NCBI GenBank assembly: GCA_963809065.1
Contig: CAWEIN010000024.1
Span: forward strand, 20,734-84,733
Length of the DNA: 64,000 nt
Source of the DNA: Blastocatellia bacterium
GTDB lineage: Bacteria > Acidobacteriota > Blastocatellia > Pyrinomonadales > Pyrinomonadaceae
Direction of reading: 5' to 3'
Shown here: positions 6,530-62,681 of the stretch, piece after piece
Layout of the letters: each line of letters starts with the position of its first letter
Numbering within the stretch: the stretch's first letter is position 1
Program-made: the position numbers and the translations under genes
Notes under the pieces: model-generated
What the model was told of the DNA's origin: nothing
What the model saw: the letters and a program-made list of their open reading frames with translations, nothing else
Database searches by the model: none

Positions 6530-6605
6530 TTGTTCTTCTCCTGGGATGGGGTTTGGAAAGCGGGGCAATCGTATCAGCGACGAGCCCGAAGTCCCAAGTC
6601 GCGTT

Positions 6606-6720: not shown

Positions 6721-6805
6721 CTCACGTAACCGGAGTCTAATCTTCCGAGTTAGCTGCGGACCCGAATGGCACCGGCGCTGTAGATCAGACAGGAGAGAAA
6801 AAGCG

Positions 6806-10513: not shown

Positions 10514-10591
10514 CTCCGGGTTGTGTCTGGTCAGCAGTTCAGATTATTCTCGCGCGACCATTCTATAAGTTGACCTTTGGTCGCGACAACT

Positions 10592-45265: not shown

Positions 45266-47875
45266 TCATGGGGTTTGCGTACCCTGGCTGGCAGTTCCGG
45301 CGACTGACTTACGAAGGGCTATCTCATACTCACCGAGTCGGGCCCTCATTCGGCCCGAAATCCCACCGTTGCGGGCTATTTGCTCCAAAACTGCAAGCCC
45401 CTTCGGATCCCCCAAACTAACCAAGGCATCACCGGCAGCTGTTGCCAGATTATAGTCGTCAGCCTCGAAGCCTTTACCGGCTGCCTCAGCGACCACCTTA
45501 AACGCCCTGGGTTCGTAGGCCCCAATTCGTCCCAGCAATCGGAGCGCTGCTGCTCTCACCTGACTGGCATTACCCACTGCTGCGTAACGAAGACCCACGT
45601 CAAGCGATCTCTTGTCCCTTAATTCGCCGAGTCCCGCTAGCGCTGAAGCCTTTATGTTGTCACGCCACGACGGCAGATTCAGCAGCTTTACCAATGATGG
45701 GTAGGCTTCGGGGCTTTTCGTATCACCGAGCGCTAAGGCGGCGACCTTGATAACCGCGTAACTCTGATCGTTCAAAAACTTCAAATATAAACTTGCCAGC
45801 CCAGGGTCTTTGGAAACTGCCAGTGAAGCTATGGCCCTGGCGCGCACGCGAGCGTTGACATCGCCGGTCGCCGCAATTAGTGCGTTTCGCGTGCTGGGCG
45901 CTTTCAGGTCCGCAAGCGCGGTAACAGCGTTGACTCTGACGCCCCAGAATTTGTCATTAGTGGCAACGTTTGAAAACGCTTGCGCTATTTGCTGTTTCTC
46001 AGTTTCCGAAATCGTCGGCGCCCCGATGCGGGTTTGAAGTTGACCGAGCGCCCAAACTCGTCCCAGAACGTCTTCATCTCGCGTCATTTGATAAGCCAAT
46101 TCATCAGTGGTTTTCTCAAACTCCAATTCCTTGATTAAGGTGCCGTGATAATCAAAGTTGACCAGCAACGGTTTTGAGTCAACCGCTAAGCTAAAGATCT
46201 GTTGCTTCTTTGGAAGAATTTGCACTCGCTCGAGGCGCATTCCCGCAGCCGTACCGATCTCTATGTTCACTGGAGTCTGAAAGAGCGCCACTTGAGGAAA
46301 CTGGGACGTGTTATCGATCGTCTGTAGTTGTTCGACGGAAAGGGTCAAAATCTTCGTGGCAGGATTGTAGTCTTGCTTAACGCGGAAAATTGGATGCCCC
46401 ATTTTGTAGAGCCATTCGTCGAAGAACCAATCCATTGCCTGACCAGTAGATTCCTCAATCGCAATCCGAAATTGCTCGGTCTCTACCGGTTGATTGGCAT
46501 ACTTGTTCAGGTAGTAGTTGATTGCTCTCCACCAATTGTCTTCACCAAGCGCTTGCCTGAGCATGTGTAGCACGGCCCCACCGCGCGGGTAGGCATAGGT
46601 GTCGAAAACTGAATCGGGCGTGGCGTAGTTCTTCGTCACAATTGGATGACGGTTGCCCTGCTTCCAGGCAGCAAGGTAGGCATCCTGGTTGGCTTTTACA
46701 TCCGAATAGAGAAAATCGTCGCCACCCAATTTGTGTTCATCCCACATCGCCTGGAAGTAGGTCGCAAAACTTTCATTAAGCCAAATGTCGGACCAATCCC
46801 TGCACGTGACGTAGTCACCAAACCACTGGTGTGCCAGCTCGTGAGCCTGTAGGCCGTCGGTGTTTGAATCGAGTTCAGTGCGCGCATCGTGAATCATATT
46901 ATCCGTTTGCGTTGTGGCGCTGATGTTTTCCATTCCGCCGCCAAAATCACGTGCAGTGGTTTGAGCATACTTCGCGTAGGGATACTTCAATCCCGTCTTC
47001 TCAGAAAAGAACTTAACCATCTCCGCTAGCCGTGCAGTACTCGCTTTGCCTTCCTTGACTTCGCTGGGATAGACATTGGTGATGATTGGAATGCCCAGGT
47101 ACTCGCTGACGATCGGAACGTACTCGCCCACGATAATTGAGGTCAGGTAACTGGCGTGTGGCTGCTCTATTTTCCAATGGAAGGTGCGCGTTCCATCCTT
47201 GTTCTCTTTGGTGTCAAGGAGCTTTCCGTTTGAGATTACCGATAGCGGTTTCTCTACAGTAGCCGTAATCTCAGAAGTGAAGAAATCATTCGGATGGTCA
47301 TAACAGGGAAACCAATAGTGGTTGTACTCACTTTCTCCCTGCGACCAAATCTGCTTTGGCCTCGTAGGATCGTCAGGCGTTGGCTTGATGAACCTCAGCG
47401 GCGCTCCCACTAAACCGGCAAGCTTCGATTGCGGGCCGTTGGTGTGGTACTCAATAACCAGGCTAACTTCGTCAGTTGGCTGATATGGACGTCCTAGTTC
47501 TATGCGCAACTTTTGGTTGGCCGGATCCATCTCAAACTTCAGCTCGGCTCCGCCCATTTTTACTGAGGAAATCGTCATTTCTGCGGCATCAAGCTCTATC
47601 TTTCGCAAATCCGCGACCAGTGGTTTGAAGCTTAAGTTTTCGACACCACTGAGCTCTTCCTGTTCCCAGTTAAACCTAATATCGAGGGCAATATGCCGCG
47701 TATCGAAATTTCGATCAGGAATGTATTGAATCGGCGGAAGTAAGTGTGATTGCTGAGCGGTCTGAAGAACCTTGTCAAGAACCGGCAAAGTCTTCCCGAA
47801 TGTAGTTGTCGTCAGAATCAATATCAGGACTAACGAGAGGACCTGAAGTTCACGCCGAAAAATACGAAACCTCAT
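45266..47875 (-). CDS. M1-family aminopeptidase (aminopeptidase N-like) with C-terminal HEAT/ARM repeats
   Basis: GGMEN exopeptidase motif; HELAHQWFGD...WLNESFATY zinc site; signal peptide; HEAT-like repeats in the last ~250 aa. Confidence 0.9.
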   Translation of the reverse strand: MRFRIFRRELQVLSLVLILILTTTTFGKTLPVLDKVLQTAQQSHLLPPIQYIPDRNFDTRHIALDIRFNWEQEELSGVENLSFKPLVADLRKIELDAAEMTISSVKMGGAELKFEMDPANQKLRIELGRPYQPTDEVSLVIEYHTNGPQSKLAGLVGAPLRFIKPTPDDPTRPKQIWSQGESEYNHYWFPCYDHPNDFFTSEITATVEKPLSVISNGKLLDTKENKDGTRTFHWKIEQPHASYLTSIIVGEYVPIVSEYLGIPIITNVYPSEVKEGKASTARLAEMVKFFSEKTGLKYPYAKYAQTTARDFGGGMENISATTQTDNMIHDARTELDSNTDGLQAHELAHQWFGDYVTCRDWSDIWLNESFATYFQAMWDEHKLGGDDFLYSDVKANQDAYLAAWKQGNRHPIVTKNYATPDSVFDTYAYPRGGAVLHMLRQALGEDNWWRAINYYLNKYANQPVETEQFRIAIEESTGQAMDWFFDEWLYKMGHPIFRVKQDYNPATKILTLSVEQLQTIDNTSQFPQVALFQTPVNIEIGTAAGMRLERVQILPKKQQIFSLAVDSKPLLVNFDYHGTLIKELEFEKTTDELAYQMTRDEDVLGRVWALGQLQTRIGAPTISETEKQQIAQAFSNVATNDKFWGVRVNAVTALADLKAPSTRNALIAATGDVNARVRARAIASLAVSKDPGLASLYLKFLNDQSYAVIKVAALALGDTKSPEAYPSLVKLLNLPSWRDNIKASALAGLGELRDKRSLDVGLRYAAVGNASQVRAAALRLLGRIGAYEPRAFKVVAEAAGKGFEADDYNLATAAGDALVSLGDPKGLAVLEQIARNGGISGRMRARLGEYEIALRKSVAGTASQGTQTP

Positions 47876-48145
47876 TTAATAATTTCTCCTGCAGTTGGAA
47901 TTCCTAAGTGCATTGGAACCAGAAATCTTATGTAAGCCTTAATTTCACCTCGCGGTTATTGTTGCACGGAAGGCGTCGGTCTGAAAGCCAGTACGGCGGC
48001 CCACTTCGACTCTTAACGCAGGCCTATTCTGTTAGCCTGATATTTTTCTTGCTGGTTGCGCCCACTGGGACTTCGACGCGCGACATCGCCGTCGGTAATA
48101 GCGAAGAGTGGTATCAATACTGACAAAGTTAAAACCATTGCTTTC

Positions 48146-48174
48146 TTGACAAAGTTTTTTCACGCGAGCAGAAT
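48146..48174 (+). promoter_or_regulatory. Candidate sigma-70 promoter of purC
   Basis: TTGACA at 48146-48151, a 17-nt spacer, then CAGAAT at 48169-48174, about 60 nt upstream of the ATG at 48236. Confidence 0.35.
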
Positions 48175-48235
48175 CTTCGCTCGCCGCTTCTCAAGAAAAA
48201 TTCTTTCAAGCATTGCGAATAGCAGCCACTACCAA

Positions 48236-49126
48236 ATGACAACAGCTACCAGCTCACAAATGTCCGTTAACCTAAATTTGTTGAAACGTGGAAAAGTCCG
48301 GGATGTCTATGAAGTTGATGACTCCCGTCTCCTGATCGTAGCCACCGATCGAATCTCCGCGTTCGATTGCATCCTGCCGACAGCTATCGCGCGCAAGGGC
48401 GAGGTCTTAACTTCTCTCTCGAAGTTTTGGTTTGAGAAGCTCGCGCACATCGTTCCAAACCATTTCATCACAATCGACAACGAGGAGATGCCTGAAGCGG
48501 TCAAGCAAGCTGCGGACCTTAAGGGGCGCTCAATGCTCGTCAGCAAAGCTGAGGTCTTCCCGGTGGAATGTGTTGTGCGCGGCTACCTTGTAGGATCCGG
48601 TTGGAAAGACTACCTGCGGACGGGCGAAGTGTGCGGCCACAAATTACCCGAAAATCTGCTCGAGTCCGCGGAATTAGAGGAGCCAATCTTTACGCCTTCG
48701 ACCAAAGCAGATGTAGGCCATGACGAAAACATTAGCGAGGATCGAGTGCGGGAACTGCTCGGTGCAGATACCGCAAACTATCTGCGTGAAACTTCTCTGC
48801 GTCTCTATAATGAAGCACGAAGCTACGCCCGTGGCCGCGGAATAATCATCGCCGATACAAAGTTTGAGTTTGGACGCGATCAAAATGGTCAAATAATTCT
48901 GGTTGATGAAGTGTTGACTCCGGATTCCTCCCGCTTTTGGCCCGCGGAGAGCTATAACCCCGGCAAATCACAAGCCTCATTTGATAAGCAGTTTGTGCGC
49001 GACTATCTGGAAACGCTTGACTGGAACAAGCAGCCACCCGCCCCACCTTTGCCCGCGGAAGTTGCCTCTGCGACCACGTCTCGTTATCTGGAAGCGTACC
49101 GCCTGCTAACCGGCGAAGAACTCTGA
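48236..49126 (+). CDS. purC: Phosphoribosylaminoimidazole-succinocarboxamide synthase
   Basis: GKVRDVYEV, LIVATDRISAFD, IIIADTKFEFG. An alternative start at 48260 is possible. Confidence 0.93.
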   Translation: MTTATSSQMSVNLNLLKRGKVRDVYEVDDSRLLIVATDRISAFDCILPTAIARKGEVLTSLSKFWFEKLAHIVPNHFITIDNEEMPEAVKQAADLKGRSMLVSKAEVFPVECVVRGYLVGSGWKDYLRTGEVCGHKLPENLLESAELEEPIFTPSTKADVGHDENISEDRVRELLGADTANYLRETSLRLYNEARSYARGRGIIIADTKFEFGRDQNGQIILVDEVLTPDSSRFWPAESYNPGKSQASFDKQFVRDYLETLDWNKQPPAPPLPAEVASATTSRYLEAYRLLTGEEL

Positions 49127-49160
49127 GTCTAAGTCTATTTGACCTGGGATACTTAAGAAG

Positions 49161-49400
49161 ATGCGCGCCCGGCTCGAAGCCTTAATCGATGAGATGTTGG
49201 ACGGCCACATTCTATTGGCCGAAGCTGTCAACGAATTCGAAAGGCTCTACATCAAGAAAGCACTCGCAAGAAACAAGGATCACCTTTCCAGGACCGCCAA
49301 GGCCCTCGGCATACACCGAAACACGATTTCAAAGCGAGTTGCTGACCAATCCAAAATGAGGCGACCTCTGACCCGTGCCGCACGCAGCGGAACGCGCTAA
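49161..49400 (+). CDS. Fis-family helix-turn-helix DNA-binding protein
   Basis: 79 aa. The end EFERLYIKKALARNKDHLSRTAKALGIHRNTISKRV matches the Fis/NtrC-type HTH pattern. Confidence 0.7.
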   Translation: MRARLEALIDEMLDGHILLAEAVNEFERLYIKKALARNKDHLSRTAKALGIHRNTISKRVADQSKMRRPLTRAARSGTR

Positions 49401-49603
49401 CTACCTCATGATCTTCTCCGGAGACCGCGCGCGTCCCACTCCTACTAGATTTGTCAATTCCCAAATCCTCGCGGCTGCCGCACATGCAGGCGGACGCCCA
49501 CATTTCCGGCGGGCTTTGTCCACCATGCGGAATTGAGTGCTGTCCCGGTGTTTTCCATCTTGACGACACTTGACTTTGCGATAGTGGCTGGCTGCACCGT
49601 CAG

Positions 49604-49734
49604 ACAAAATCAGAACTGGGAGCGATAGCGACCAGCCGATCACTCACTCAACTTTCCAGAAGCTGGAGCGCTGGTGCACATTTTCATGAGTTGACTCCTC
49701 GGCTGGTCGCTATCGCTCCCAGTTCTGATTTTGT
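49604..49734. repeat. REPIN copy 2
   Basis: Arms at 49604-49637 and 49701-49734. The loop shares gtgcacattttcatgagttgactc with other copies. Confidence 0.9.
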
Positions 49735-49807
49735 GTAGAGATCGGCTCCACGAACCACGAGGAGACTTTTTGCGCAAAGCAGATCCTATGAATATGCCCT
49801 GGCATGG

Positions 49808-49836
49808 TTGACATTGATTCCGCAGCGTTTTATGCT
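49808..49836 (+). promoter_or_regulatory. Sigma-70-type promoter of groESL
   Basis: TTGACA at 49808-49813, a 17-nt spacer, then TATGCT at 49831-49836, abutting the CIRCE operator. Confidence 0.6.
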
Positions 49837-49862
49837 TAGCACTCATCCGCAGAGAGTGCTAA
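49836..49862 (+). promoter_or_regulatory. CIRCE operator (HrcA binding site)
   Basis: Perfect TTAGCACTC-N9-GAGTGCTAA, 69 nt upstream of groES. Confidence 0.92.
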
Positions 49863-49930
49863 AGTCGGACGAAGTTCAGTGCTAAAATACGCAATCTTAC
49901 AAGGGAAAACTGAAAGGAGAACTCCAAAGC

Positions 49931-50263
49931 ATGTCGACAAATATTACACCTCTCCATGACCGCGTCATCGTACGCCGCATTGAGGAGGGAGAGCAGGTTC
50001 GTGGGGGAATTATTATCCCCGATTCCGCCAAGGAAAAGCCGCAGGAAGGCGAGGTCGTTGCGGCCGGGGCAGGCAAATACAAGGAAGATGGAACCAGACA
50101 ACCTCTCGACGTCAAACCTGGCGATAGAGTCTTGTTTGGCAAGTACAGTGGTTCTGAAATCAAGATCGACGGTGAAGAGCTGCTGATTATGCGCGAAGAT
50201 GAGATCCTCGGAATCATCGCACGCGCCGGCGCAGCCACTGGAACCAAGAAGGGCGGCAAGTAG
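49931..50263 (+). CDS. groES: Co-chaperonin GroES with a short extended C-terminus
   Basis: [42 protein letters not shown]. Confidence 0.95.
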
Positions 50264-50298
50264 GGTCCGGAAGACTTGGCCGCTGCTTTTGTTTCTAA

Positions 50299-51987
<1,689 letters not shown>

Positions 51988-52031
51988 CGAAGGCTTGGGG
52001 AACCCAATCAGTTCCCTTCCCTTAAACAAAA

Positions 52032-52075
52032 GCGGCCTGCCTTCTAACAAGAAGTTGGGCCGCCTTTCTTTTGTG
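52032..52075 (+). terminator. Possible intrinsic terminator after groEL
   Basis: gcggcc ... ggccgc stem followed by ctttcttttgt. Confidence 0.4.
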
Positions 52076-52094
52076 CGGTTCCTTCAGTGGCTAC

Positions 52095-52142
52095 ACAAAA
52101 TCAGAACTGGGAGCGACAGCGACCAGCCGATCACTCAACTGA
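52095..52142. repeat. Solo left REP arm plus 14 nt of REPIN loop, truncated at a rearrangement junction
   Basis: 52094-52142 is identical to 52266-52314. After caactga it joins directly to a copy of the RAYT 3' end. Confidence 0.85.
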
Positions 52143-52266
52143 AACCGAGCAGGATGTTATTGACGCAGTAGTGTACGTTCAGTACGAACAGGGTGAATAG
52201 TGTGGAAGTAAAAGACAAAATCAAAACCGCAAGCGATGTGACTCGATGAACGATCACGGTCGGCAC

Positions 52267-52403
52267 ACAAAATCAGAACTGGGAGCGACAGCGACCAGCC
52301 GATCACTCAACTGACAACACTCCGGCTTGGGGCCGCCTCTTTCGTGCACATTTCATAACTTGACACTCTAGCTGGTCGCTATCGCTCCCAGTTCTGATTT
52401 TGT
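52267..52403. repeat. REPIN copy 3 (upstream flank of RAYT)
   Basis: Arms at 52267-52300 and 52371-52403. Confidence 0.9.
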
Positions 52404-52495
52404 GTGGCGAGGTCAAGATTTCTTGCAACAAACGGCAGAAGACAACAAAGCCGAAGTGCTGGTGGAATTCGCACTACGGGTCCTACGATGTTTGT

Positions 52496-52994
52496 ATGGG
52501 GAAGGCCGATTTTGAATTTAGTAATATTCCACAGGCTTATCTTATAACGTTCCGAGGCTACGGAACGTGGCTTCACGGAGACAAACGCGGCTCGGTGGAC
52601 CGAACCCACAACCGATTTGGAACCCCACGCCTGATCCCAAACGAACGGCGACGTCAGCTGAACCTCGAAAGGCTCAAGCATAAACCGGTGCGTTTAGAAG
52701 AACCGCCGAGGCTTCTGGTAGGGGGCGCCATAAGAGAGATTTGTAAGAAGCGCCACTGGGATCTCTGGATTGTGAATGCAAGAACCAATCATATTCATGC
52801 GGTGGTTACCGCACCCTTGCAAGCCAGAACTCGTCTTAACGGCACTTAAAGCAAATGCCACCCGGAAACTAAGAGAGGCTGGCTATTGTGATGGTGAAAG
52901 TCCTTGGGCCAAGCGTGGGAGCAAGAGATATTTGTGGACCGAGCAGGATGTTATTGACGCAGTAGTGTACGTTCAGTACGAACAGGGTGAATAG
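52496..52994 (+). pseudogene. REP-associated tyrosine transposase (RAYT, IS200/IS605-like Y1 HUH transposase), one frameshift near 52810-52830
   Basis: N-terminal AYLITFRGYGTWLHGDKRGSVD and the HUH motif TNHIHAVV lie in frame 2. The continuation KPELVLTALKANATRKLREAGY...SPWAKRGSKRYLWTEQDV (candidate catalytic Tyr in RY) is in frame 3. REPINs flank both sides. Confidence 0.8.
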
Positions 52995-53060
52995 TGTGGA
53001 AGTAAAAGACAAAATCAAAACCGCAGGCGATGTGACTCGATGAACGATCACGGTCGGCAC

Positions 53061-53197
53061 ACAAAATCAGAACTGGGAGCGACAGCGACCAGCCGATCAC
53101 TCAATTGACAACACTCCGGCTTGGGGCCGCCTCTTTCGTGCACATTTCATAACTTGACACTCTAACTGGTCGCTATCGCTCCCAGTTCTAATTTTGT
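53061..53197. repeat. REPIN copy 4 (downstream flank of RAYT)
   Basis: Arms at 53061-53094 and 53166-53197. Part of the 268-bp direct repeat 52938-53205. Confidence 0.9.
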
Positions 53198-53642
53198 GTG
53201 GCGAGAGTTAATGCCTAACCCCAGGTTGCATTTGTTATGTTTGTCAAGCGAACCCCTCTCGTTTAGCCAAACCACTACGAGCAAGGAATTTTGCAAAAAG
53301 ACCGGAAACTCCAACGCCTCAACTATTAAAGACCTCTGCGCTGAGAACGACCTTGAAGGTGTTCCTCGAAAAAAAGGCAGAATTCTGCCACTCTATTAGG
53401 CACGCAACACCGATGTAAGAATCTTGCAAGAAACCTACAATCCGGCCTCCCTGAATTGAACGGTTCCACTTGATCGCTTTACCCTGAATTGGAAGTCGGT
53501 CCGTTTAAGTCGTTTATCCTTAACGTCAGCACACCCTAAAAGGAGAACACAGTCCGCCCGCTGGAAGAACTGCCGTAAGGCCTGCCCCCAGGTCTCAGCG
53601 AACAAAAAGTTCACCCTTCGCGCGTAAACGTGTATCAAGTTT

Positions 53643-54770
53643 ATGCCCCTAGCCGCCGCTCCCACGACGCTCGGTTACTCGCCAACCGAACATCCAACTA
53701 CAGATCGTAAGCCCTGGTCTAACAGAGATGCTTCGACCGCTGAAGCAAGAGAGTCGAAACTCATCGGGCAATCACCGGTGATGCAAAAGCTCTTTTCTGT
53801 CATTGGCAGAGTAGCGCCAAACGATAGCTCTGTACTTATTACCGGCGCCACCGGAACCGGCAAGGAACTCGTGGCCCGCGCTATCCACGACCAAAGCCCT
53901 CGCCGCGAGGGTAAGTTTGTCGACGTGAATTGCTCGGCAATTCCCGAAACGCTAATCGAAGCAGAACTATTTGGCCACCAGCGCGGTTCGTTTACCGGCG
54001 CGCTTGCCAACAACTGCGGTCTCTTCGAGAAAGCTTCCGGCGGAACTCTGTTCCTCGATGAAATTGACGCCCTAAACCTATCTGCTCAGGCAAAACTTCT
54101 GCGCGTGCTGCAGGAGCGCACGGTGAGAAGGATTGGCGCCCGCACTAACATCGCCATCGATGTGCGCGTTATTTCGGCGACGAACTGCGACCTCGCTCAG
54201 GAAGTTCAAGCCGGCCGTTTCCGTCCGGATCTTTACTACCGCCTGCGCGTGCTTCCGCTCCATCTCCCCGAACTCTGCACCCGCGGAAACGATGTCGAAC
54301 TATTGATCGAACACTTCCTGCGACTCAAGGCCGAGCGCGAAGGTCTTCCTCCCCGTCGGTTTTCGAGCGAAGCAATGCGCGCCCTGGTTGAATACCCCTG
54401 GCCGGGTAATGTTCGAGAACTCGAGAATGCGGTGGCTTATGCAATGGCGATTGGTGCTGAGGAGCAACTCGGGTTGGAAGATTTGCCAATAGAGATCACC
54501 AACAATCGCATTCAGCCGAATACGTCAGATTTCAGAGACGTTCTTGAGGCCTATATGAATGAGACTGTTCCGCTGGCAGAGATTGAGAAGCGCTATATCC
54601 TTTCAGTCTTGCAGCAATTCGGCGGCAATCAGGTGCGCGCCGCAGCTGCGCTGGGAATCGATCGCAGCAAACTCTATCGTCGTCTCAAACAGTATGGTGT
54701 GATGGCGGTGAAGTTTTTGCAGGAAGAACAAAACGGTATGCAACTGCGAACCTGGTCTGACAAGGCCTAG
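53643..54770 (+). CDS. Sigma-54-dependent transcriptional activator (AAA+ plus Fis-type HTH) with no N-terminal sensory/receiver domain
   Basis: Walker [24 protein letters not shown] (GAFTGA-type loop), [10 protein letters not shown]-terminal [24 protein letters not shown]. Only ~40 aa precede the AAA+ core. Confidence 0.9.
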
Positions 54771-54881
54771 CAGGACGCTCTCGTGGCCCCGACCATAGCG
54801 GCGAATCGACTTCGGTCGGTTCGCCGCTACCGCTTTTTGCTCGCTGATACTTAACGAGCTGAGCATCCTTAACCGAGCTAA

Positions 54882-55220
54882 ATGGTCAAGCTCCTACAAA
54901 AATGCTTGCTCATTGCACTGACGGTTACTGCCGCAGCCGTTTGGAGTTGGTGGATGTATTTGGATGGCTACTATTACCAGCATGCCCCCACGACGCCGGT
55001 AATTGCTGAAGGCAGAATCCACCCCCGGATCGTCCACCATGGCTGGCAGGTTTTTCTCACCGACAAAGAAAAGTTCAACCTCGACGTGTTATATCCGTCG
55101 CTCCCGCTTGTCTGCATTCTCATTGCCGGACTACTCGATAAACACTGGAAACATTTCTATTTTGCAAGGAACTCACGCCGTGCCGATCTAATCTCTCCGA
55201 TAACGAAGAAAAAGAATTAG
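54882..55220 (+). CDS. Small hypothetical membrane protein
   Basis: 112-aa ORF with two hydrophobic helices. No family recognised. Confidence 0.4.
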   Translation: MVKLLQKCLLIALTVTAAAVWSWWMYLDGYYYQHAPTTPVIAEGRIHPRIVHHGWQVFLTDKEKFNLDVLYPSLPLVCILIAGLLDKHWKHFYFARNSRRADLISPITKKKN

Positions 55221-55231
55221 CGGCGAACGCA

Positions 55232-55413
55232 GCTTTGCACAAAAAGTCTACTCACGGCCGTGGAATTGAGTTATCTGCTAATACAAAATCAGAACTGGGA
55301 GCGATAGCGACCAGCCGGACAGTCAACTTATGAAAATGCGCCCCAACAGGGCTCCAATCTCAGTAAAGTTGACTTGTTCGGCTGGTCGCTATCGCTCCCA
55401 GTTCTGATTTTGT
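55232..55413. mobile_element. MITE left arm (gctttgcacaaaaagtctactcacgg...) plus REPIN copy 5; right MITE arm missing
   Basis: REP arms at 55283-55316 and 55380-55413. The left flank is homologous to 58623-58674 and 62291-62351. Confidence 0.8.
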
Positions 55414-55455
55414 GTAGGGCTCTCCCCTTTTCCCTTGTCAATTACCTGTTTAGCT

Positions 55456-56385
55456 CTAATGCTTGCTAATGGGCGTTGCGCGGTAGCTATTATTGAAAGG
55501 CGCCAGCTCAGTTCCCTTTGCCGCTTCTGCAGCTTTGAGTTGTTCGGTCGAGTGGTAGATCGTCTTCTTCGACTTCGGCAGCAAACCAGCAACCTCCATG
55601 TCGCCGTTAACGACTGCGATGGATTTCCGGCTCTCATCGAGCACCGCCTCATCGCCTTTCTTCAACGCCCAAATCAATGCCACCGGTGAGGAGTACGGGA
55701 GAATCGCAGCACCGGTAGCAATGGCCGCAGCCACCACTGCCTTACTACGATTCTTTCCCAGCAGGCGGTCAGAAAGTTTGATCGGCACGATGGTGCCGTC
55801 AACTGCAACCACGTCTTCCACTACCCAACCCAGCAAACCACCACGGCCCCATGATTCAGCCGGCTTGCTCTTCACCACATGCGCCCGCACCAGTGACCCT
55901 CGTTCAATCACAACTACGCCGTTAACCAGCACACGCCGCGACACCAGGAATTTGATTTTGTCGCCCTCGCTGGCATCGGCGGATGAAACTGGCACAGCCG
56001 CTTCAATCTGCAACACTGTTCCGGCGGGGATTCGAATACGGGTGGTCGGCGGTGCCGGCTCGGCCACAGGAACAGTCATCGGTGTGGCGGAAGGAGGTCC
56101 ATAGGGCACCATGACCATCGCCATGACCACGGTGTCCGGCAGACCCTTCGTTTTCAACTCCCGCAACACCTGAGGAAAGGTATCGAAGTTACAGGGTGAG
56201 GTTACGATCCTGCTGATGATATCGCCCGGCTTCATGCCGGCGCGGTGCATTCGCAGAACATCCCCATTGTGTAGAACTTTAGTGGGTGGTTGAGGCGCTG
56301 CAGCTTGCGCGAAGGCGAGCGAACAATTTGCGAGGAGGAAGACAGCAACGAGCAGGATATGTTTGCACTTCATGTGAGCCCTCAT
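55456..56385 (-). CDS. Secreted hypothetical protein
   Basis: Signal peptide KHILLVAVFLLANCSLAFAQ. The N-terminal module NGDVLRMHRAGMKPGDIISRIV...LRELKTKGLPDTVVMAMV resembles a short helical repeat that I recall as common in Acidobacteria proteins (recollection, unverified). Confidence 0.5.
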   Translation of the reverse strand: MRAHMKCKHILLVAVFLLANCSLAFAQAAAPQPPTKVLHNGDVLRMHRAGMKPGDIISRIVTSPCNFDTFPQVLRELKTKGLPDTVVMAMVMVPYGPPSATPMTVPVAEPAPPTTRIRIPAGTVLQIEAAVPVSSADASEGDKIKFLVSRRVLVNGVVVIERGSLVRAHVVKSKPAESWGRGGLLGWVVEDVVAVDGTIVPIKLSDRLLGKNRSKAVVAAAIATGAAILPYSSPVALIWALKKGDEAVLDESRKSIAVVNGDMEVAGLLPKSKKTIYHSTEQLKAAEAAKGTELAPFNNSYRATPISKH

Positions 56386-56594
56386 AAGTTCGGAGCAGAG
56401 AACACAGTTGTCTACCAGTCATGGAGCAACCAATATGCCGGGAGAACAAGCCCGCACTTTCCCCCGCAAAATGGGCTTTCTCGCAGCAGCTGCGGTTGCG
56501 GTCTGTGGGCGATGGAGCGACAACTGCTCGCTGGCGAGCAGCGTTGAGGTTACAAACCAATAAACTCAACTGAACCTGGAACCACTCAAGCGAC

Positions 56595-56708
56595 TTGCTG
56601 GGACCGCGGGCGTCCCGCCCGCAAACGCGCCGTCAGGCGCGCAGTTCTTGGGCGGCGATCTTTTCGCGCTTCGCGCTCATTGCGGGCGGGACGCCCGCGG
56701 TCCCAGCA
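56595..56708. repeat. GC-rich palindromic element, copy 2, embedded in a ~200-bp repeat unit (56581-56780)
   Basis: ttgctgggaccgcgggcgtcccgcccgc ... gcgggcgggacgcccgcggtcccagca. The flanks match 58156-58355. Confidence 0.85.
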
Positions 56709-56791
56709 CATCACTGGACCGTTCCGAATTTGTGCGGCGTATGTAGACGAGCAATACTTCGCTCGTGCCAAACTGAACTAAGAGTCATAAT

Positions 56792-57064
56792 CTCCACATA
56801 CACCTGCAAAGACTCCACATACACCTGCAAAGACTCCACATACACCTGCAAACACTCCACATGCACCTGCAAAGACTCCATGAGCACGTGCAAAGACTCC
56901 ATATGCACGTGCAAAGACTCCACCTACACGTGCAAAGTCCCCATATATACGTGCAAACACTCCATCTTCATGTGCAAAACAGCCACATTCAGCTGCAAAG
57001 ACGCCATATAAACGTGCAGAACTCCCATATACACCGCGCAAGAATCTGCCCTCAAGCCCAAATT
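56792..57064. repeat. 21-bp tandem array, ~12-13 units, degenerating 5' to 3'
   Basis: Units 1-2 are identical (ctccacatacacctgcaaaga). Later units keep the CC.A......C.TGCAAAGA core and drift progressively. Confidence 0.92.
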
Positions 57065-57313
57065 GCGCAAAATGCTGAATTAAACTGCAATTTCCCCTAT
57101 CCGGCAGCCTAAACCAATGCTAATATGCGCGGCGACAGCTGCTTCTTTTCAAACGAACCCGGCTGTCGCGGTCAACCGTTAGACACTGATTGATGGCCAG
57201 TCCTCATCGCCTCAGGCTGACCTCAATCAGTTCGAGAACTCACTCACTTCCTCGCTCCTCTTTTCCGACCGGGAAGTGAAAACCTTTCACCGCAGCTTTC
57301 CTCAGGAGGATTC

Positions 57314-58051
57314 ATGAACGACAACGAAAGTAGAAAACATCAGATGTTTGTCCGCGCCCAGCAATTCCTTGCCAACCGTGCGGCGGACTTTGGACCCGGC
57401 AGTCTGGTCAAAGACTTGATTGCAGATCTCGGAGGAGTCATAACTGAGTTGGACGGCTACGCTGCTGCTCAAGCGTCCGGCGGCAGCAGCGCCCGGCAAG
57501 GGACCGTCACACGTGCAGAGGCAAGAGCCGCCCTGCGTGAAGACCTGGAGGCAATCAACCGCACTGCGCGAACGATGGATGACGAGCCGGGACTAATCGA
57601 AAAGTTTCGTCTGCCTCGACCATTCAATGATCAGCAGCTGATTAGTGCGGCGCGGCATTTTGCGATCGACGCAGCGCCACTAAAAAACTCATTCATTGCG
57701 CACGAGTTGGCCGGCAATTTTCTCGAGGACATGGCAGCGGACATAGCGGCGCTGGAAGAGGCGATAGGCAATCAGTCTGGCGGCATTGGGAATCGCGTGG
57801 CTGCGAGCGCAGCCATCGACGAAGCTATAGAACGCGGCACGGTAATAACGCGCAAGTTGGGTGCGATTATGAAGAATAAATATGGAAACGATCGCGCCAC
57901 TATTGCGGAATGGACCAGCGCCAGCCACACGGAACGCCCGCCGCGTCGCCGGCGGGAACCGGGCGCCGGCGCTCCTGCACCCACAACTGGCGGAGCACCA
58001 CCGCCGCCACCTAGCGGCGGAACTGAGCCACCGCCACCCGCTGCGGGCTAA
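57314..58051 (+). CDS. Hypothetical alpha-helical protein with a Pro/Gly-rich C-terminus
   Basis: 245-aa ORF with GGAGG immediately upstream of the ATG. No family recognised. Confidence 0.5.
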   Translation: MNDNESRKHQMFVRAQQFLANRAADFGPGSLVKDLIADLGGVITELDGYAAAQASGGSSARQGTVTRAEARAALREDLEAINRTARTMDDEPGLIEKFRLPRPFNDQQLISAARHFAIDAAPLKNSFIAHELAGNFLEDMAADIAALEEAIGNQSGGIGNRVAASAAIDEAIERGTVITRKLGAIMKNKYGNDRATIAEWTSASHTERPPRRRREPGAGAPAPTTGGAPPPPPSGGTEPPPPAAG

Positions 58052-58059
58052 TCGGTATT

Positions 58060-58150
58060 TCATGACAGCGGACTGACAGAAGGTTGCCGGGGGTGGGTTC
58101 CAATTGATCGGAACGCCACCCCCGGTTACTTCCTAATAAAAATCTTTCGC
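58060..58150. repeat. ~90-bp hairpin-containing repeat (ccgggggtgg...ccacccccgg), copy 1
   Basis: Homologous to 62045-62135. Both copies sit just 3' of a plus-strand gene. Confidence 0.75.
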
Positions 58151-58169
58151 CAACGACCACTCAAGCGCC

Positions 58170-58283
58170 TTGCTGGGAACGGGGCGTCCCGCCCGCAATG
58201 AGCGCGAAGCGCGAAAACATCGCCAGCCAAAAGACTGCGCGCCTGACGGCGCGTTTGCGGGCGGGACGCCCGCGCTCCCAGCA
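58170..58283. repeat. GC-rich palindromic element, copy 3
   Basis: Same arms as 56595-56708, with the same conserved flanks accactcaagcg.cttgctggg and cccagcacatcact.gaccgttcc. Confidence 0.85.
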
Positions 58284-58621
58284 CATCACTTGACCGTTCC
58301 GTGTTTGCGCGATTTACGTTGATGAGGAAATACTTAGCTCATACCGAACTGATACGGAAGTACCTTTTTAGGGCGTTACCGTTTAAGAGGGCGGTGACGC
58401 CCTTTTGCCTCATAAGGGCCATGCCTAAGCGGAGATTTGCCCTCTCCAGATCCACTTAGGATTAGAAAACGGCTGAGCAAAAATTCGACGATTGCATGAA
58501 TTTTATTTGCAACCAAAACAGTCTAACTGGTATCTGAGCAACCGCACAGCTCTTCCCAACCCGAGTACTGGGTCAGTTTGATGTCCGATAAGCTTTAGCT
58601 TGTCGTGGTGCTACGACAAAC

Positions 58622-58865
58622 GGCTTTGCACAAAAAGTCTAATCCACGGCTGTGGAATTGGGCTCTCTCGTAACACAAAATCAGAACTGGGAGCGATAGC
58701 GACCAGCCCAACACTCCACTTTCCAGAAGTTGGAGCGCCTGTTTGGCCGCATTTTCATGAGTTGACTCTTCGGCTGGTCGCTATCGCTCCCAGTTCTGAT
58801 TTTGTGTAGACGTGGTTTCTGAAGTAAAACTGCTGGACACTTTTTGTGCAAAGCTACGACAAACT
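58622..58865. mobile_element. 244-bp MITE (terminal inverted repeat gctttgcacaaaaagt) carrying REPIN copy 6 (58675-58805), flanked by a 10-bp direct duplication
   Basis: tacgacaaac occurs at 58612-58621 and again at 58866-58875. An uninterrupted inverted copy of the target element lies at 59743-59842. Confidence 0.85.
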
Positions 58866-59042
58866 GAAGTTTGTCGGACATTTTCGTTGAAACTGACCCA
58901 CTACCCCATCCCGGCTCTCTCCCTGGAATCCCGAACTTATTAGTGATTTCTTCCTTAAGAAATCTATCAACTACGTCTGTACGCCTAGTTGGGAGACCAG
59001 AGGAGTCCCCACACTAAGGCCATCGCCGAACGAGGGGAACCC

Positions 59043-59225
59043 ATGTCCACTAAGGAATTAGAAAAAATTAAGGAATTAGAACAAATTGAAGATCGCGCTC
59101 GGCGTGGACTGCCTATTGATTCCGAAGTGATACTAACCTTGACCGCCTACCTTCGTGACGTCTTACAGGAAAAAGTAAACGCTGAAGCTGTTGCGCATGA
59201 GGCGCTAAAAAAAGGCGGGCATTAA
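59043..59225 (+). CDS. Small helical hypothetical protein (60 aa)
   Basis: MSTKELEKIKELEQIEDRARRGLPIDSEVILTLTAYLRDVLQEK... with a GAGGGGA RBS. A frameshifted paralog lies at 61172-61370. Confidence 0.5.
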   Translation: MSTKELEKIKELEQIEDRARRGLPIDSEVILTLTAYLRDVLQEKVNAEAVAHEALKKGGH

Positions 59226-59742
59226 CTCCCGGTGTACACCGCTGAAATAACATGCTCCTGTACTCTCAAGTCAGCTGCTCCCGAAGACTAAGTATGCCGA
59301 AGGTCGTGGACCGTTAGATTATCGATCTTCGCTTTCCTGAAAGGCCTCACGAAACCCTTCTTAATGTCATTGATGAGCGAGTCCCTTCATACATAGCCCA
59401 ACCGTTGCATCTCCAGTCACCTCTTTCGAGAACCCGCCCCTTTGACAACCTGGAGTGATGGCTACCGACAATCTTTATGTACGAGTTCCTGGCTTGGCTT
59501 GCTTCGGCGCATTGACTAGAAAAGCAAAACATTCCACAGTTTTGTTATCCAATCTAATTTTTCAAGGCAGGGGTGCATAGGCTGGTGATCGATTGAAAGC
59601 CACCGAGCGCTTGGTTTCCGTTCACAGAATCGAAAGTTTAGTTTCCTGTTACCCAATAGAACTTCAAAACCTGCCCAAAGACGTGCACTTCCAGGTACGT
59701 TTCCTTGGCGTCTTGATTGCAATATATCCACCGTGTGTTGCT

Positions 59743-59842
59743 GAGTAGTGGGTCAGTTTTAACGAAAATGTCCGACAAACTTCAGTTTGTCCTAGCACCA
59801 CGACAAGCTAAAGCTTATCGGACATCAAACTGACCCAGTACT
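59743..59842. repeat. ~100-bp self-complementary element (gggtcagttt...tgtccgacaaacttcagtttgtc...), intact copy
   Basis: It is the reverse complement of 58563-58621 joined to 58866-58908. Confidence 0.85.
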
Positions 59843-59850
59843 TATTCCTG

Positions 59851-60421
59851 ATGGATGTTGGGGCCGATTCAATGACGAAAGAACAGACACCCGAAAATAA
59901 AACTCATCCGCCTAATGAACCACATTTTGACGATGAGTTAACTATTTTAAAGGCCCGCCCGGTTGTGCCCTTAAAGAAGTTTGAGGAGAAGGGGGAGGTG
60001 GTTTTTATTTGGGATGTTCGCGCTGGCCATGTTTCTAGGTGCTGCTTCAGGCCTCATCTCGGGGTATTTCAAACTGCGCGAAGTTTCAGAGGAACCAGTC
60101 ATCCAATTAGGTGTTCCAACTGTAAGGGCGCCTCAAGAGCCCCTTCCTTCTACGGTATCTGAAGAGCTCGATACTAAGAACGGCTTTGGGAACCCTTTAC
60201 CGCACCTCTCTTCCGTTGAGGAACAGCAACTCAAACTCTTCACCCCAAAACACCCGGTTATCAGGCCGAGACGAGTATCAATAAATACAAAACACTCAGT
60301 CCCATTACCATCACTCTCTGAAGATGAAGAGTTGCGAAGAATTAGAGAGGCCTTGTTGACCGACGATTTGGAGAGGCGGCGAGTGCGGACCACGGAGAGA
60401 CGCGAACAGCGCAGATTTTGA
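59851..60421 (+). pseudogene. Hypothetical single-pass membrane protein, frameshift in a G-run near 59985-60000
   Basis: The N-terminal part (MDVGADSMTKEQTPENK...KKFEEKG) is in one frame. The TM segment and remainder (WFLFGMFALAMFLGAASGLISGYF...) are in the next frame. Confidence 0.45.
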
Positions 60422-60436
60422 GCGGGATGATCCGTC

Positions 60437-60694
60437 ATGATCAGAAAATTAACGTCAGGAAGATATGCTCTGTATTCGCGCAAATTGGATTCTAAGACGG
60501 GGAGGTCCAAGCGCCTGGGCACATTCGACAGCCGCCAAGCCGCAGAAGATCACGAACGCGCCATTGAAATACTTAAGACACAACGGATGATTGCGCGAGA
60601 AGGCATCTATAGCTCGGTTCACAGAGTAATCCGATGTATTCGGCAGGGTGAGGACAGTGACTATGGGAAGCTGAATGCTTCCGCCCAACCTTGA
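60437..60694 (+). CDS. Small basic hypothetical protein (SGRYALYSRKLDSKTG...LGTFDSRQAAEDHERAI motif)
   Basis: 85-aa ORF starting 13 nt after the previous stop. The N-terminal 45 aa resemble a widespread uncharacterised small-protein family (recollection only). Confidence 0.45.
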   Translation: MIRKLTSGRYALYSRKLDSKTGRSKRLGTFDSRQAAEDHERAIEILKTQRMIAREGIYSSVHRVIRCIRQGEDSDYGKLNASAQP

Positions 60695-60744
60695 GAGGCC
60701 AACAATATACTTGACTCATCAATTGAACACCCAACGATGGTCGG

Positions 60745-60858
60745 ACAAAATCAGAACTGGGAGCGATAGCGACCAGCCAAAGAATCACTTCAGCTTAGGC
60801 GGCATTTCCTGGTCACTTGCCCTCCTGGCTGGTCGCTGCGCTCCCAGTTCTGATTTTG
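60745..60858. repeat. REPIN copy 7 (short loop, degenerate right arm), inside a second inverted repeat (caatatacttgactcatcaa at 60703 and 60917)
   Basis: Arms at 60745-60778 and 60827-60858. Confidence 0.85.
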
Positions 60859-61171
60859 CGGTGGCCAAGTTGAATCTTCATCTGGTCAGTCTTGCAAACT
60901 GAACCGAGATTTCACGTTGATGAGTCAAGTATATTGCTGCCCTTGAGAGGCCAGTCCAAAGCTGGCCTTTCGGTTTTTGTGCCGTCTGAACGAAAATTAG
61001 AATCCTTTTTCCTGGTATGTCCTAATTTGAGCTGCGTCATGTGGCCTAGAGCGCCGTTTGTCCCGCTAAGGTTCCTTTGACCTTCATGTACGGTAGCGTG
61101 CAGACTGCTCGTCATATAATTTTGGCTTCCCCTTTGATCCCGTAATTCTGTCATTAAACGAGCGGTTCTCT

Positions 61172-61370
61172 ATGACTATTCAGGAACTCGAACAAATCGA
61201 ATATCGCGCGCAAACGGGGGCAGCCTGTTGACCCCGAACTCATACTGAGGTTGAGTGCCTACATTCGCGATAGCTTACAAGCAAAGGCAATCGCTGAGGC
61301 TATTGCTATTGAGGCCACAAGGCAGGCAGGTATGCAATCCCGGTATTACACCGTGGGAGTGTCCCGTTAG
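61172..61370 (+). pseudogene. Paralog of the 59043-59225 small protein, frameshifted in a G-run at ~61214-61220
   Basis: MTIQELEQIEYRAQ, then after a +1 shift GQPVDPELILRLSAYIRDSLQAKAIAEAIAIEA. This aligns with ELEQIEDRARRGLPIDSEVILTLTAYLRDVLQEKVNAEAVAHEA. Confidence 0.55.
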
Positions 61371-61584
61371 GTATTCTGTTAGCTGGCTTCCCGATTTCCG
61401 GGTTTTCTTTTTGTACGCTAGCGTATAGACCTGACGATCTAAAATTATTGCTATTCAGGGTAGAACAAATGCGGGGCGGCTGGTGACTTTGTTTCATCGC
61501 TTCGCGCCACTCGCCCCGCGACGAATTTGACCCTACCACTTACCTCCGAAATGAGTTGGCCTCCCGACTCCGAAAGGGCTAAAA

Positions 61585-61956
61585 ATGAAGTCCCCTAAGG
61601 CCCGTATCCTCTGCACAGAAGATGACGCAGACACACGCGAACTACTCATTCTCACGTTGCGGTTTGCTGGTTACGAGATAAAGTGCACCGATAGTGCTGA
61701 TGAAGCAATTGACCTTCTCACGAAGGAAAGGTTTGGCCTATGCCTTCTCGACAGTTGGTTGCCGGGAACCTCCGGCGAAGAGATATGCAAGAAGATCCGC
61801 GAGTTTGACGCCAAGATACCTATACTTTTCTATTCTGGCGCAGGCTTGCCTGCTGACAAGGAACGCGCCTTCAAAGCTGGAGCGCAAGGGTATCTCGTGA
61901 AGCCTGTTTTCGCGGAAGAGTTAATCAGTGAAGTCTCCCAACTGCTCAATACCTGA
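61585..61956 (+). CDS. Single-domain CheY-like response regulator receiver
   Basis: RILCTEDDADTRELL, CLLDSWLPGTSGEE, ILFYSGAG, KAGAQGYLVKP. Confidence 0.85.
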   Translation: MKSPKARILCTEDDADTRELLILTLRFAGYEIKCTDSADEAIDLLTKERFGLCLLDSWLPGTSGEEICKKIREFDAKIPILFYSGAGLPADKERAFKAGAQGYLVKPVFAEELISEVSQLLNT

Positions 61957-62203
61957 CTTAAAGACTACTACTAGCATCCTTTCCATTTAACCAGTCCGGT
62001 AGCCCTTGTTTGTGATTGAGATAAGCGCGGACTGCGATCTCCAAATTTCACGACAGCACACTGACAGAATGTTGCAGGGGGGTGGATTCCAATGATCGGG
62101 ACGCCACCCCCGGTTACGTCCCAATAAATTGATTCGGCTGTCGGCCCTCCGCGGGCTCTCGCATATTTTCGACTCGCGGATTTTGGCATCCAACCAGCGC
62201 CGC

Positions 62204-62569
62204 ACAAATACAGAACCGGGAGCGGTAGCGACCGGATTCAACTTGCCTAACCTTATGCAAAAGCGGAGCGCGCTTGTTCGAGGTGAAACAGCTTTGCACA
62301 AAGATTCTACTCACGGCTGTGGAATTGAGTTATCTGCCAATACAAAATCAGAACTGGGAGCGACAGCGACCAGCCGAACACTCAACTTTGGGGCCCTGTT
62401 GGGGTGCATTTTCATAAGTTGACTCTTCGAGCTGGTCGCTATCGCTCCCAGTTCTGATTTTGTGTAGAGCTCTCCGTGCGAGAAACCACGCTGAGTAGTT
62501 TCTGTACAAAGCAAAGTGAATCTATGGCATCTTGAACCCGGTCGCTACCGCTCCCGGTTCCGTATTTGT
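62204..62569. mobile_element. Three-layer nested repeat: a variant REPIN (arms acaaatacagaaccgggagcggtagcgaccgg) containing a MITE (62291-62512) containing REPIN copy 8 (62352-62463)
   Basis: Outer arms at 62204-62235 and 62538-62569. Middle arms gctttgcacaaag.../...ctgtacaaagc. Inner arms at 62352-62385 and 62431-62463. Confidence 0.85.
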
Positions 62570-62681
62570 CCAGCTGATGTTGATTGGCAATACTTCGCTC
62601 GTGCCATCGGAATGAATAACGCTGAAGCGTACGCTCTATTTCGGTAGGACGCGCGGCATGCCAACTATCAGCGTTAACCCA

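Follow-up and report, generated by a model that had tools for sequence, protein, structure and literature searches.

Within a 64,000-nucleotide stretch of a Blastocatellia bacterium genome (GenBank assembly GCA_963809065.1, contig CAWEIN010000024.1, positions 20,734 to 84,733 of the forward strand), a gene for a Y1 tyrosine transposase lies among copies of a short hairpin repeat of the repetitive extragenic palindrome (REP) kind, almost always arranged as inverted doublets (REPINs, REP doublets forming hairpins). This whole stretch is called the window hereafter; coordinates follow its numbering unless another contig is named, and copies of the gene and of the REP were counted within it. The locus is, in our assessment, probably a REPtron, that is, a class 3 Y1 transposase gene, similar to those of the REP-associated tyrosine transposases (RAYTs), which resides at a fixed site together with its cognate repeats. 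We compared it with 77 distinct loci encoding transposase relatives of 52-91% identity. The locus at the upper end of this range, L001, lies on a 145-kb metagenome contig and encodes a protein 91% identical to that of the window; 12.5 kb of this contig was examined, and it is collinear with window positions 46554-56440.

The transposase gene and its class

The gene (52496-52994, plus strand) comprises 165 codons once its frame is repaired and is accompanied in the window by one 3' fragment of itself; a tnpB-like partner is absent. As assembled, it is read from 52496 to 52816 and then, in the next frame, from 52815 to 52994, and the single frameshift noticed earlier comes down to one extra C in the run at 52814-52816 (plus strand; gcaCCCttgc, as against gcgCCttgc in the intact gene of L001). 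Removing this C restores TAPCKPELVL, as in the closest homologue (P0001), and the 58 codons downstream of the shift keep every invariant residue, with a dN/dS (ratio of nonsynonymous to synonymous substitution rates) of 0.09. A gene for a FAD-dependent oxidoreductase (Pfam DAO; 10577-11802) is also split over two frames, near A-runs at 10901-10908, its open reading frames (ORFs) 10577-11056 and 10867-11802 corresponding to profile positions 2-104 and 106-353, respectively. Because two homopolymer-associated shifts occur within 64 kb, an error of the consensus is suspected; the evidence suggests that the +1 C shift is either such an indel error or a very recent mutation, and a reading of the gene as a pseudogene is not secure.

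The product had been described from the sequence as an IS200-like Y1 transposase of about 165 residues with an HUH (histidine-hydrophobic-histidine) motif, and this description holds: the Pfam Y1_Tnp profile is matched, the predicted model has the HUH fold and NHIH is retained among relatives. The match to Y1_Tnp (PF01797) is borderline, at 23.7 bits against a cut-off of 23, and covers residues 75-135 only; among aligned relatives, 27 of 27 match this profile, with a best E of 1.1e-7. An expected match to IS200 or RAYT profiles thus stands for the Pfam family and fails for the two equivalog families of NCBIfam, transpos_IS200 (NF033573; 21.6 bits against a cut-off of 55) and REP_Tyr_transpos (NF047646; 14.4 against 80). 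Searches of PDB with the sequence and with a 27-sequence profile gave chance matches only (RsfS, histone H2A), so the fold was assigned by structure prediction and Foldseek. The AlphaFold model (pLDDT 80.6, pTM 0.75) has its elements in the order beta-alpha-beta-beta-alpha-beta-alpha, which is the HUH topology, and the best 30 Foldseek matches in PDB were all TnpA structures of the IS200/IS605 family or the Escherichia coli TnpA_REP (4er8). On the strength of this model, we regard the Y1 HUH transposase fold of the protein as established, whereas its membership of a characterised family at the sequence level is not.

Residue conservation, scored on 90 diverse relatives that represent clusters at 50% identity, points to the likely active site. 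The HUH histidines (residues 99-101, within NHIH at 98-101) lie on strand 99-105 of the model; H99 and H101 are each kept in 90 of 91 relatives and K118 in all 91. The earlier note had placed the candidate catalytic tyrosine in KRYLW. This residue, Y145, lies on a beta strand (137-146) and is kept in 57 of 84 relatives. Y158, in YVQYEQ, lies on the last helix (149-162) and is kept in 76 of 82, with Q163 kept in 72 of 82. Given its position and its higher conservation, Y158 is predicted to be the more likely catalytic residue, with Q163 beside it. The near-invariant N-terminal segment YLITFRGYGTWLHGDxRGSVDRxHN, which contains the block YLITFRGYGTWLHGD.RGSVDR, is also retained in diverse representatives.

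The family to which the protein belongs is large. A first homology search matched 1110 proteins, to many of which the Joint Genome Institute (JGI) had given the label 'REP element-mobilizing transposase RayT'; in a representative library, the matching clusters at 50% identity numbered 3424 at E <=0.001 and 469 at E <=1e-30. Its features recall the class 3 TnpA_Y1 proteins, which were reported as a rare class of Y1 HuH proteins in Planctomycetes, Acidobacteria and Proteobacteria, with the motifs NHVH, W[TA] and YV[VI][AENY]EQ (Y----Q; Table 1), conservation extended into the N-terminus (155-aa profile) and, on average, some 1.2 copies in each genome (Quentin et al., 2018; PMC6006769). The window protein has NHIH, LWT and YVQYEQ, and its sole departure from the published pattern is Q instead of V/I at position 3 of the Y-motif. 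The family consensus is NHVH for the HUH motif and YVxYDQGEP for the Y-motif, i.e., Y----Q, where the window protein reads YVQYEQGE. To judge from its sequence, therefore, the protein appears to fit class 3, with which it also shares the long conserved N-terminus, the low copy number (one gene in the window), the host phylum and a comparable size (165-170 aa here, against a published median of 178). Class 3 was missed by Bertels et al. (2017), whose RAYT groups 1-5 all correspond to class 2 subclasses; class 2 members all carry Y---NP, and the GT[AG]G foot is not universal among them, being absent in subclasses 2.1, 2.3 and 2.6 (PMC6006769).

The locus had been read as a RAYT gene with its cognate REPINs. 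In the functional sense this survives, since inverted doublets stand on both sides of the gene; the protein, however, is not a canonical RAYT of groups 1-5 and fits class 3 better, because REP_Tyr_transpos scores 14.4 against 80, the Y-motif is Y----Q and not Y---NP, and the foot of the hairpin is CAGA and not GT[AG]G. The earlier doubt as to whether such a family had been described in this lineage is also answered, as class 3 has already been reported in Acidobacteria with REPtron-like flanks (PMC6006769). The hairpins in these flanks are several in number, atypical and weak; their 5' foot is CnGA, and they recur at other places in the genome (some 600 copies in Solibacter usitatus). The hairpins described below resemble them. 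That study considered 14-24 proteins, and its hairpins were found by hand and described as 'secondary structures'; here, in contrast, a tandem G.A core and a covarying outer stem are shown across more than 70 loci, doublets are almost always present, the host is of the Blastocatellia/Pyrinomonadaceae type and the gene has a syntenic site. The locus is thus a further case of a known class 3 kind, to which a family-wide definition of the hairpin and the synteny are modestly useful additions.

Comparison with other known systems gives a similarly mixed picture. The REPIN-RAYT systems of Pseudomonas and Enterobacteria (Bertels and Rainey, 2011, PMC3116915; groups 2 and 3 of Bertels et al., 2017, PMC5581495) likewise combine a single resident Y1 gene, seemingly vertical in its position and under purifying selection, with inverted REP doublets that act as the unit and form long hairpins in extragenic space. 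They differ in belonging to class 2 and in their Y-motif and foot, and here a single arm is a weak hairpin (-4.2 kcal/mol) and the phylum is Acidobacteriota. The TnpA_REP of the E. coli REP-BIME (bacterial interspersed mosaic element) REPtron (Ton-Hoang et al., 2012, PMC3333891; Messing et al., 2012, PDB 4ER8, PMC3479197) resembles the window protein in fold (Foldseek E 2e-4, TMq 0.53, with an rmsd of 4.4 A, the lowest of the top matches) and in having its gene amid inverted REP pairs with a guide tetranucleotide 5' of the hairpin. Their identity is only 12%, and guide, hairpin and Y-motif all differ. The terminal inverted repeat (TIR)-associated tyrosine transposases of Acidobacteria (TIRYTs, in TIRtrons; Di Nocera et al., 2013, PMC3733652) also pair tyrosine transposase genes with flanking inverted repeats, which can give rise to repeated families in dimer form, much as the gene in many of our relatives is bracketed by one inverted REP per side. 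The TIR motif of these elements (in Terriglobus, Koribacter, Acidobacterium and Granulicella) is GGGGWSAS, unlike the hairpin found here, and the likeness noted here is one of arrangement. Finally, IS200/IS605 elements (IS608, ISDra2) share the HUH/Y1 fold, the Tyr...Gln pair on the last helix and, presumably, recognition of a hairpin plus guide in single-stranded DNA (ssDNA); in contrast to them, the window gene does not appear to be a multicopy insertion sequence (IS), has flanking hairpins on opposite strands, lacks tnpB, falls below the IS200 equivalog cut-off and occupies a syntenic site.

The hairpin repeat as the probable partner of the gene

The conserved repeat unit of about 50 nt reads ACACAAAA-TCAGAA-CTGG-GA-GC-GAYA-GC-GA-CCAG-CCGAACACTCAACT, with the foot CAGAA and two tandem G.A mismatches in the hairpin. 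A 35-nt version of it has 15 matches in the window at <=3 mismatches, where none is expected, and its 22-nt core has 17-18 matches against an expectation of 0.01. It had been claimed that the same hairpin pair flanks the gene on both sides and is scattered through the window, and these core counts, together with eight doublets, bear this out. The folding that had been proposed as a check gave a weak hairpin for a single arm, with a z of about -2, while the doublets fold as one long hairpin (-37 to -59 kcal/mol, z -9 to -16). We take the doublet to be the unit because, of the 72 arms examined, 66 are paired with an inverted arm no more than 260 nt away.

To ask how closely the hairpin follows the gene, the surroundings of the relatives were searched with the pattern N4-GAGC-N3-5-GCGA-N4', in which four outer pairs were required. 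This strict motif occurs within 700 nt of the gene in 47 of the 77 loci, and on both sides of it in 23 of the 53 loci with enough flank. Its density is 1.45 per kb near the gene and 0.084 per kb further away, a 17-fold difference, and shuffled sequence yielded one match in 709 kb. When pairing was not required, all four pairs were present in 173 of 397 distinct matches. Most of the 130 flanking motifs have the foot CAGA (97) or CGGA (23), and 121 conform to CnGA. In the usual geometry the feet point outward on both sides and the gene stands in the place of the doublet loop.

The stem itself has changed in a coordinated manner. Pairing in the outer stem, taken over 79 distinct hairpins, amounts to 91.8%, where shuffles give 83.8%, and there are 34 cells with double changes, against 8.4 in shuffles; none of 500 shuffles reached the observed value, and the signal collapsed in slid controls. 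One stem pair alone is found as CG in 52 hairpins, UA in 16, AU in two and GC in two, and the stem types include CTGG/CCAG, CCGG/CCGG, CCGC/GCGG, CAGG/CCTG, CCCC/GGGG and CGGG/CCCG.

These results bear on the proposal that the repeats mainly serve the host in regulation or structure, for example as terminators, mRNA stabilisers or protein-binding sites, and are kept by selection and gene conversion, the gene being a decaying passenger that no longer takes part in their spread. Such a proposal would suit the frameshift of the window gene, the intergenic position of the doublets, which often lie between convergent genes, and the terminator-like hairpin in the loops of the two doublets that flank the gene. 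It would also suit MFD00905.bin.2.1 (CAWHEH01), a long-read metagenome-assembled genome (MAG) of Blastocatellia covered here as the 8-kb stretches L004-L041: at least 57 REP arms of exactly the window type, mostly in doublets, are spread over its contigs in the examined stretches, with no gene. The pattern is sporadic in Pyrinomonadaceae MAGs. These occurrences, taken with the names borne by the closest homologues, place the window in the class Blastocatellia of the Acidobacteriota. However, passenger status is hard to reconcile with a hairpin that tracks the gene in 47 of 77 relatives with 17-fold local enrichment and covarying stems, with purifying selection on the gene, whose part beyond the frameshift is undecayed, or with the differences in REPIN presence and the nested insertion described below, which point to insertion events. 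We therefore consider this explanation very improbable and retain the reading of the hairpin as the cognate partner of the transposase.

Besides its eight doublets of 115-137 nt, the window has an older, diverged doublet enclosing another, a solo unit and two degenerate units; of the 17 canonical arms, 15 are found in the 13 kb around the gene. REPIN 1 (52267-52403), upstream of the gene, folds as one long hairpin of -44.7 kcal/mol (z -10.8), and REPIN 2 (53061-53197), downstream, has a weaker stem (-37.2 kcal/mol). The others are at 2387-2521 (intergenic), 49604-49734, 55283-55413 (-59.1 kcal/mol), 58675-58805, 60745-60859 (the right arm being a loop variant 1 nt shorter) and 62342-62463. This last is nested within the older REPIN at 62204-62569, whose stem type, CCGG-GA-GC-GGTA-GC-GA-CCGG, is that found beside more distant relatives of the gene, a hint of a second REP subfamily and, perhaps, of another class 3 gene elsewhere in the genome.

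Some further features of the doublets were observed. Those at about 55232-55470, 58624-58870 and 62291-62525, and partly that at 49560-49790, have in common an extra flank of about 50 nt per side, which ends in an outer inverted repeat, GCTTTGCACAAAAAG ... CTTTTTGTGCAAAGC; doublet and flanks together seem to be a composite element of about 245 nt that is repeated as a whole. In the loops of both gene-flanking doublets (52323-52344 and 53117-53138), a small GC hairpin precedes a run rich in T, an arrangement that resembles a terminator on the plus strand. Between 49 and 64 kb, Rfam returned no family at E <=1, and only sub-threshold look-alikes of miRNA precursors among the long hairpins.

A probably resident gene and its possibly mobile doublets

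The transposase gene stands between groEL and the gene for a sigma-54 activator in the window and in both L001 and L002, where it is intact and has REPINs on both sides. In L001 it is also unduplicated and has two doublets on each side, and no second copy of the gene was found in the window or in the 12.5 kb of L001. Two further loci, L042 and L043, which come from two MAGs, have a gene site in common. Three pairwise comparisons of the transposase gave dN/dS values of 0.16, 0.11 and 0.08, and its dS of 0.24 does not exceed those of groEL (0.39) and the activator (0.67). Purifying dN/dS together with a dS not above that of the neighbours, at a syntenic site, leads us to favour a resident gene over an insertion sequence, and a resident gene under selection fits the data better.

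The main competing view would make the gene and its flanking inverted REPs an autonomous IS200/IS605-like element, with the doublets as derivatives resembling miniature inverted-repeat transposable elements (MITEs); the whole would then be selfish and not resident. The arrangement at many loci lends itself to this, as the geometry is that of a REPIN with the gene in its loop (42 upstream motifs on the plus strand and 46 downstream on the minus strand) and the arms are up to 100% complementary in L042. Class 3 itself was said to be similar to IS and to REPtrons alike, and in Solibacter usitatus there are three copies that are closely related (PMC6006769). Against this view, the window and L001/L002 have the site in common at a dS of about 0.24-0.67, as do L042 and L043 with each other, and the gene is under purifying selection (dN/dS 0.08-0.16). 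Moreover, one gene is present against eight doublets in 64 kb, with no tnpB-like partner, the NCBIfam IS200 score is 21.6 bits against 55, and class 3 occurs at about 1.2 copies per genome (PMC6006769). An autonomous insertion sequence is thus quite unlikely, and a REPtron with a resident gene is the reading that we follow.

The doublets show a different pattern. Neither the one beginning at 49604 nor that beginning at 55283 is present in the orthologous spacers of L001, which are too diverged for a clean alignment of the empty sites, and one doublet is nested in another. These differences in presence and absence, together with the nesting, are consistent with insertion of doublets. By analogy with the TnpA of IS200/IS605 and the TnpA_REP of E. 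coli, the enzyme would bind the folded REP hairpin in ssDNA, with the foot as guide, and would cut and rejoin the strand through a 5'-phosphotyrosine at Y158. Doublets might in this way be copied to new intergenic sites, while the gene would stay single-copy and be inherited vertically.

Within L001, outer arms are recognisable at 6493-6534 and 6730-6771, one of which overlaps the stop codon of the gene. They had been considered as an inverted copy of the 3' end of the gene; they are better explained as the degenerate arms of an older REPIN, with REPIN C, downstream of the gene, nested inside.

Conserved sequences were also seen upstream of the gene and of its neighbour. The palindrome CAAGATTTCTTGCAA lies upstream of the transposase gene (52416-52431; L001 5920-5938) and a near-copy, TGTAAGAATCTTGCAAGAAACC, upstream of the sigma-54 activator (53414-53439; L001 7209-7227); L001 has conserved forms of the two, and L003 a similar motif. 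On sequence resemblance, the two may be the site of a common regulator. On inspection, CAAGATTTCTTGCAA was rejected as a sigma-54 promoter, since its GG-to-GC spacing is 13 and not 11, and no sigma-70-like promoter was found upstream of the gene.

Beyond the collinear region, 6.2 kb of the window (56440-62677) has no counterpart in L001, where 384 nt stand in its place. This segment holds three to four doublets, an unannotatable ORF of 245 aa (57314-58051) and a lone gene for a response-regulator receiver (61585-61956). Two other repeats lie in the same part of the window. One is an apparently non-coding tandem repeat (56792-57035) of the 21-nt unit CTCCACATACACCTGCAAAGA, with 11.6 copies at 80% matches. 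The other is a perfect 17-nt inverted repeat (58182-58271; GGGCGTCCCGCCCGCAA / TTGCGGGCGGGACGCCC, with 56 nt between the arms), which is unrelated to the REP family and gave a sub-threshold match to an miRNA hairpin in Rfam.

The duplication beside the gene and its meaning

The region around the gene also carries what is probably the scar of a rearrangement. A 268-bp direct repeat with four mismatches and a period of 794 bp had been reported here and was recovered to the base: on the plus strand, 52144-52411 and 52938-53205 are 99% identical at a spacing of 794. The second copy consists of the 3' end of the gene, its spacer and REPIN 2. The first begins with an ectopic copy of the last 18 codons and stop of the gene (52144-52200, 100% identical), continues with the copied 3' spacer (52201-52259, with a degenerate REP at 52215-52245) and ends at the outer end of the right arm of REPIN 1. 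A copied gene end plus a full REPIN does, then, stand ahead of the gene as had been stated. The four differences between the copies (52232A/53026G, 52311C/53105T, 52371G/53165A and 52396G/53190A) are all transitions, three of which make the stem of the downstream doublet weaker.

To the left of the repeat, a REP arm with 14 nt of loop was said to be fused directly to the gene fragment. The fusion is present, but the arm is a complete unit of about 50 nt (52093-52142, plus strand; foot CAGAA, hairpin CTGG-GA-GC-GACA-GC-GA-CCAG, inner segment CCGATCACTCAACTGA), and one unmatched base, an A at 52143, forms the novel junction between unit and fragment. The unit matches 52265-52314 at 100% identity and 53059-53108 at 98%, and it follows the groEL terminator, a place taken in L001 by the left arm of the first REPIN (REPIN A). 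With X for the REP unit, a for the extra base, F for the 3' end of the gene and its spacer, R for what remains of the doublet and G for most of the gene with its 5' spacer, the window reads X-a-F-X-R-G-F-X-R, while relatives read X-R-G-F-X-R, with an X-to-X spacing of 791-797 in L001 and 796 in L049. Among the relatives compared, the ectopic 3' fragment is confined to the lineage of the window; L001, L002, L049 and L003 lack the duplication. A supposed duplication of the gene 3' end in L003, within a 130-nt repeat family, was dismissed after BLAST and reading, as the similarity there starts at the REPIN, 15 nt past the stop codon. The rearrangement also created a GTG-initiated ORF of 37 codons (52087-52200), in which the solo REP unit runs in frame into the duplicated last 18 codons, including the Y158 helix; this chimera is probably meaningless.

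We favour unequal recombination from REPIN to REPIN as the origin of the repeat because its period of 794 equals the spacing of X and because its right end lies exactly at the outer end of a doublet arm; its left end is a non-homologous junction in codon 148. The flanking REPINs would have served as direct repeats about 794 nt apart, and unequal homologous recombination between them would have duplicated the unit of REPIN and gene. A later, illegitimate deletion of 623 bp (equivalent to 52315-52937) would then have taken out the inner portion of the first REPIN together with codons 1-147 of the first gene copy, to leave the order REP unit, gene 3' end, REPIN, gene, REPIN. For this history of duplication and then deletion, the evidence seems to us evenly balanced between right and wrong.

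One other explanation places the event in the assembly, with, for example, two strain variants of a REPIN-rich region joined in series. Dense, near-identical repeats would invite such an error, and the assembly is by appearance of the metagenome type (its nearest relatives are metagenome contigs and MAGs), with a consensus that is imperfect, as two genes are split at homopolymers; the intact relatives without the duplication point the same way. But the copies differ at four positions, which speaks against a simply repeated or collapsed read, and the join between REP unit and codon 148, with its extra base, resembles a junction left by a biological deletion more than it does an overlap join. 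In addition, the solo unit sits exactly at the position of the left arm of the first REPIN in L001, and long reads, to which the homopolymer indels point, would span 1.1 kb. We judge an artefact unlikely.

Alternatively, the transposase itself could have made the junction, by cutting ssDNA at the inner end of a REP and at its own 3' coding end, followed by strand transfer; the join between REP unit and codon 148 would then be the footprint of a class 3 enzyme that cut and rejoined ssDNA at the inner edge of its own REP. The left breakpoint does fall at the inner edge of the roughly 50-nt unit, 18 nt 3' of the hairpin, a distance similar to that at which IS200/IS605 enzymes cut from theirs, and the repeat, at its right end, coincides with the end of a REPIN. 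Yet no REP hairpin lies near the breakpoint within the ORF, the two breakpoints have no recognisable cleavage motif in common, the partnerless arms (6 of 72) have no recurrent truncation point, and an extra base is not expected of precise strand transfer. An enzymatic footprint is accordingly improbable, and recombination between REPINs followed by deletion remains the origin that we prefer.

Several points weigh against our interpretation of the locus as a whole. The strict motif is absent near the gene in 30 of the 77 relatives, and the class 3 gene was found in none of the examined REP-bearing 8-kb stretches of MFD00905.bin.2.1. Sequence similarity to characterised enzymes is weak, the Pfam match being borderline over residues 75-135, and binding, cleavage and mobilisation by class 3 enzymes are activities attributed by homology. 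As to the duplication, its history is a reconstruction: the junction carries an extra base and at most 2 nt of microhomology, and no intermediate was found.

REPIN-RAYT systems have been studied almost only in Proteobacteria and with class 2 enzymes, and the definition of class 3, from 2018, drew on about two dozen proteins. What is new here is a large class 3 family in soil Acidobacteriota with a sharply defined partner hairpin in doublet form, and at least one lineage in which the gene is held at a fixed site under selection. The duplication adds a local example of REPINs as substrates for recombination and is of limited general importance. Were its junction an enzymatic footprint after all, it would be the first map of a class 3 cleavage site and, together with the syntenic gene and its doublets, would indicate that a Blastocatellia host had independently evolved a vertically inherited REPIN-RAYT partnership on another class of transposase. 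For class 3 as such, the locus offers a concrete prediction of substrate and active site (Y158, with Q163). As a second, independent case, it may also help to decide whether the REPIN-RAYT partnership is a general bacterial phenomenon.

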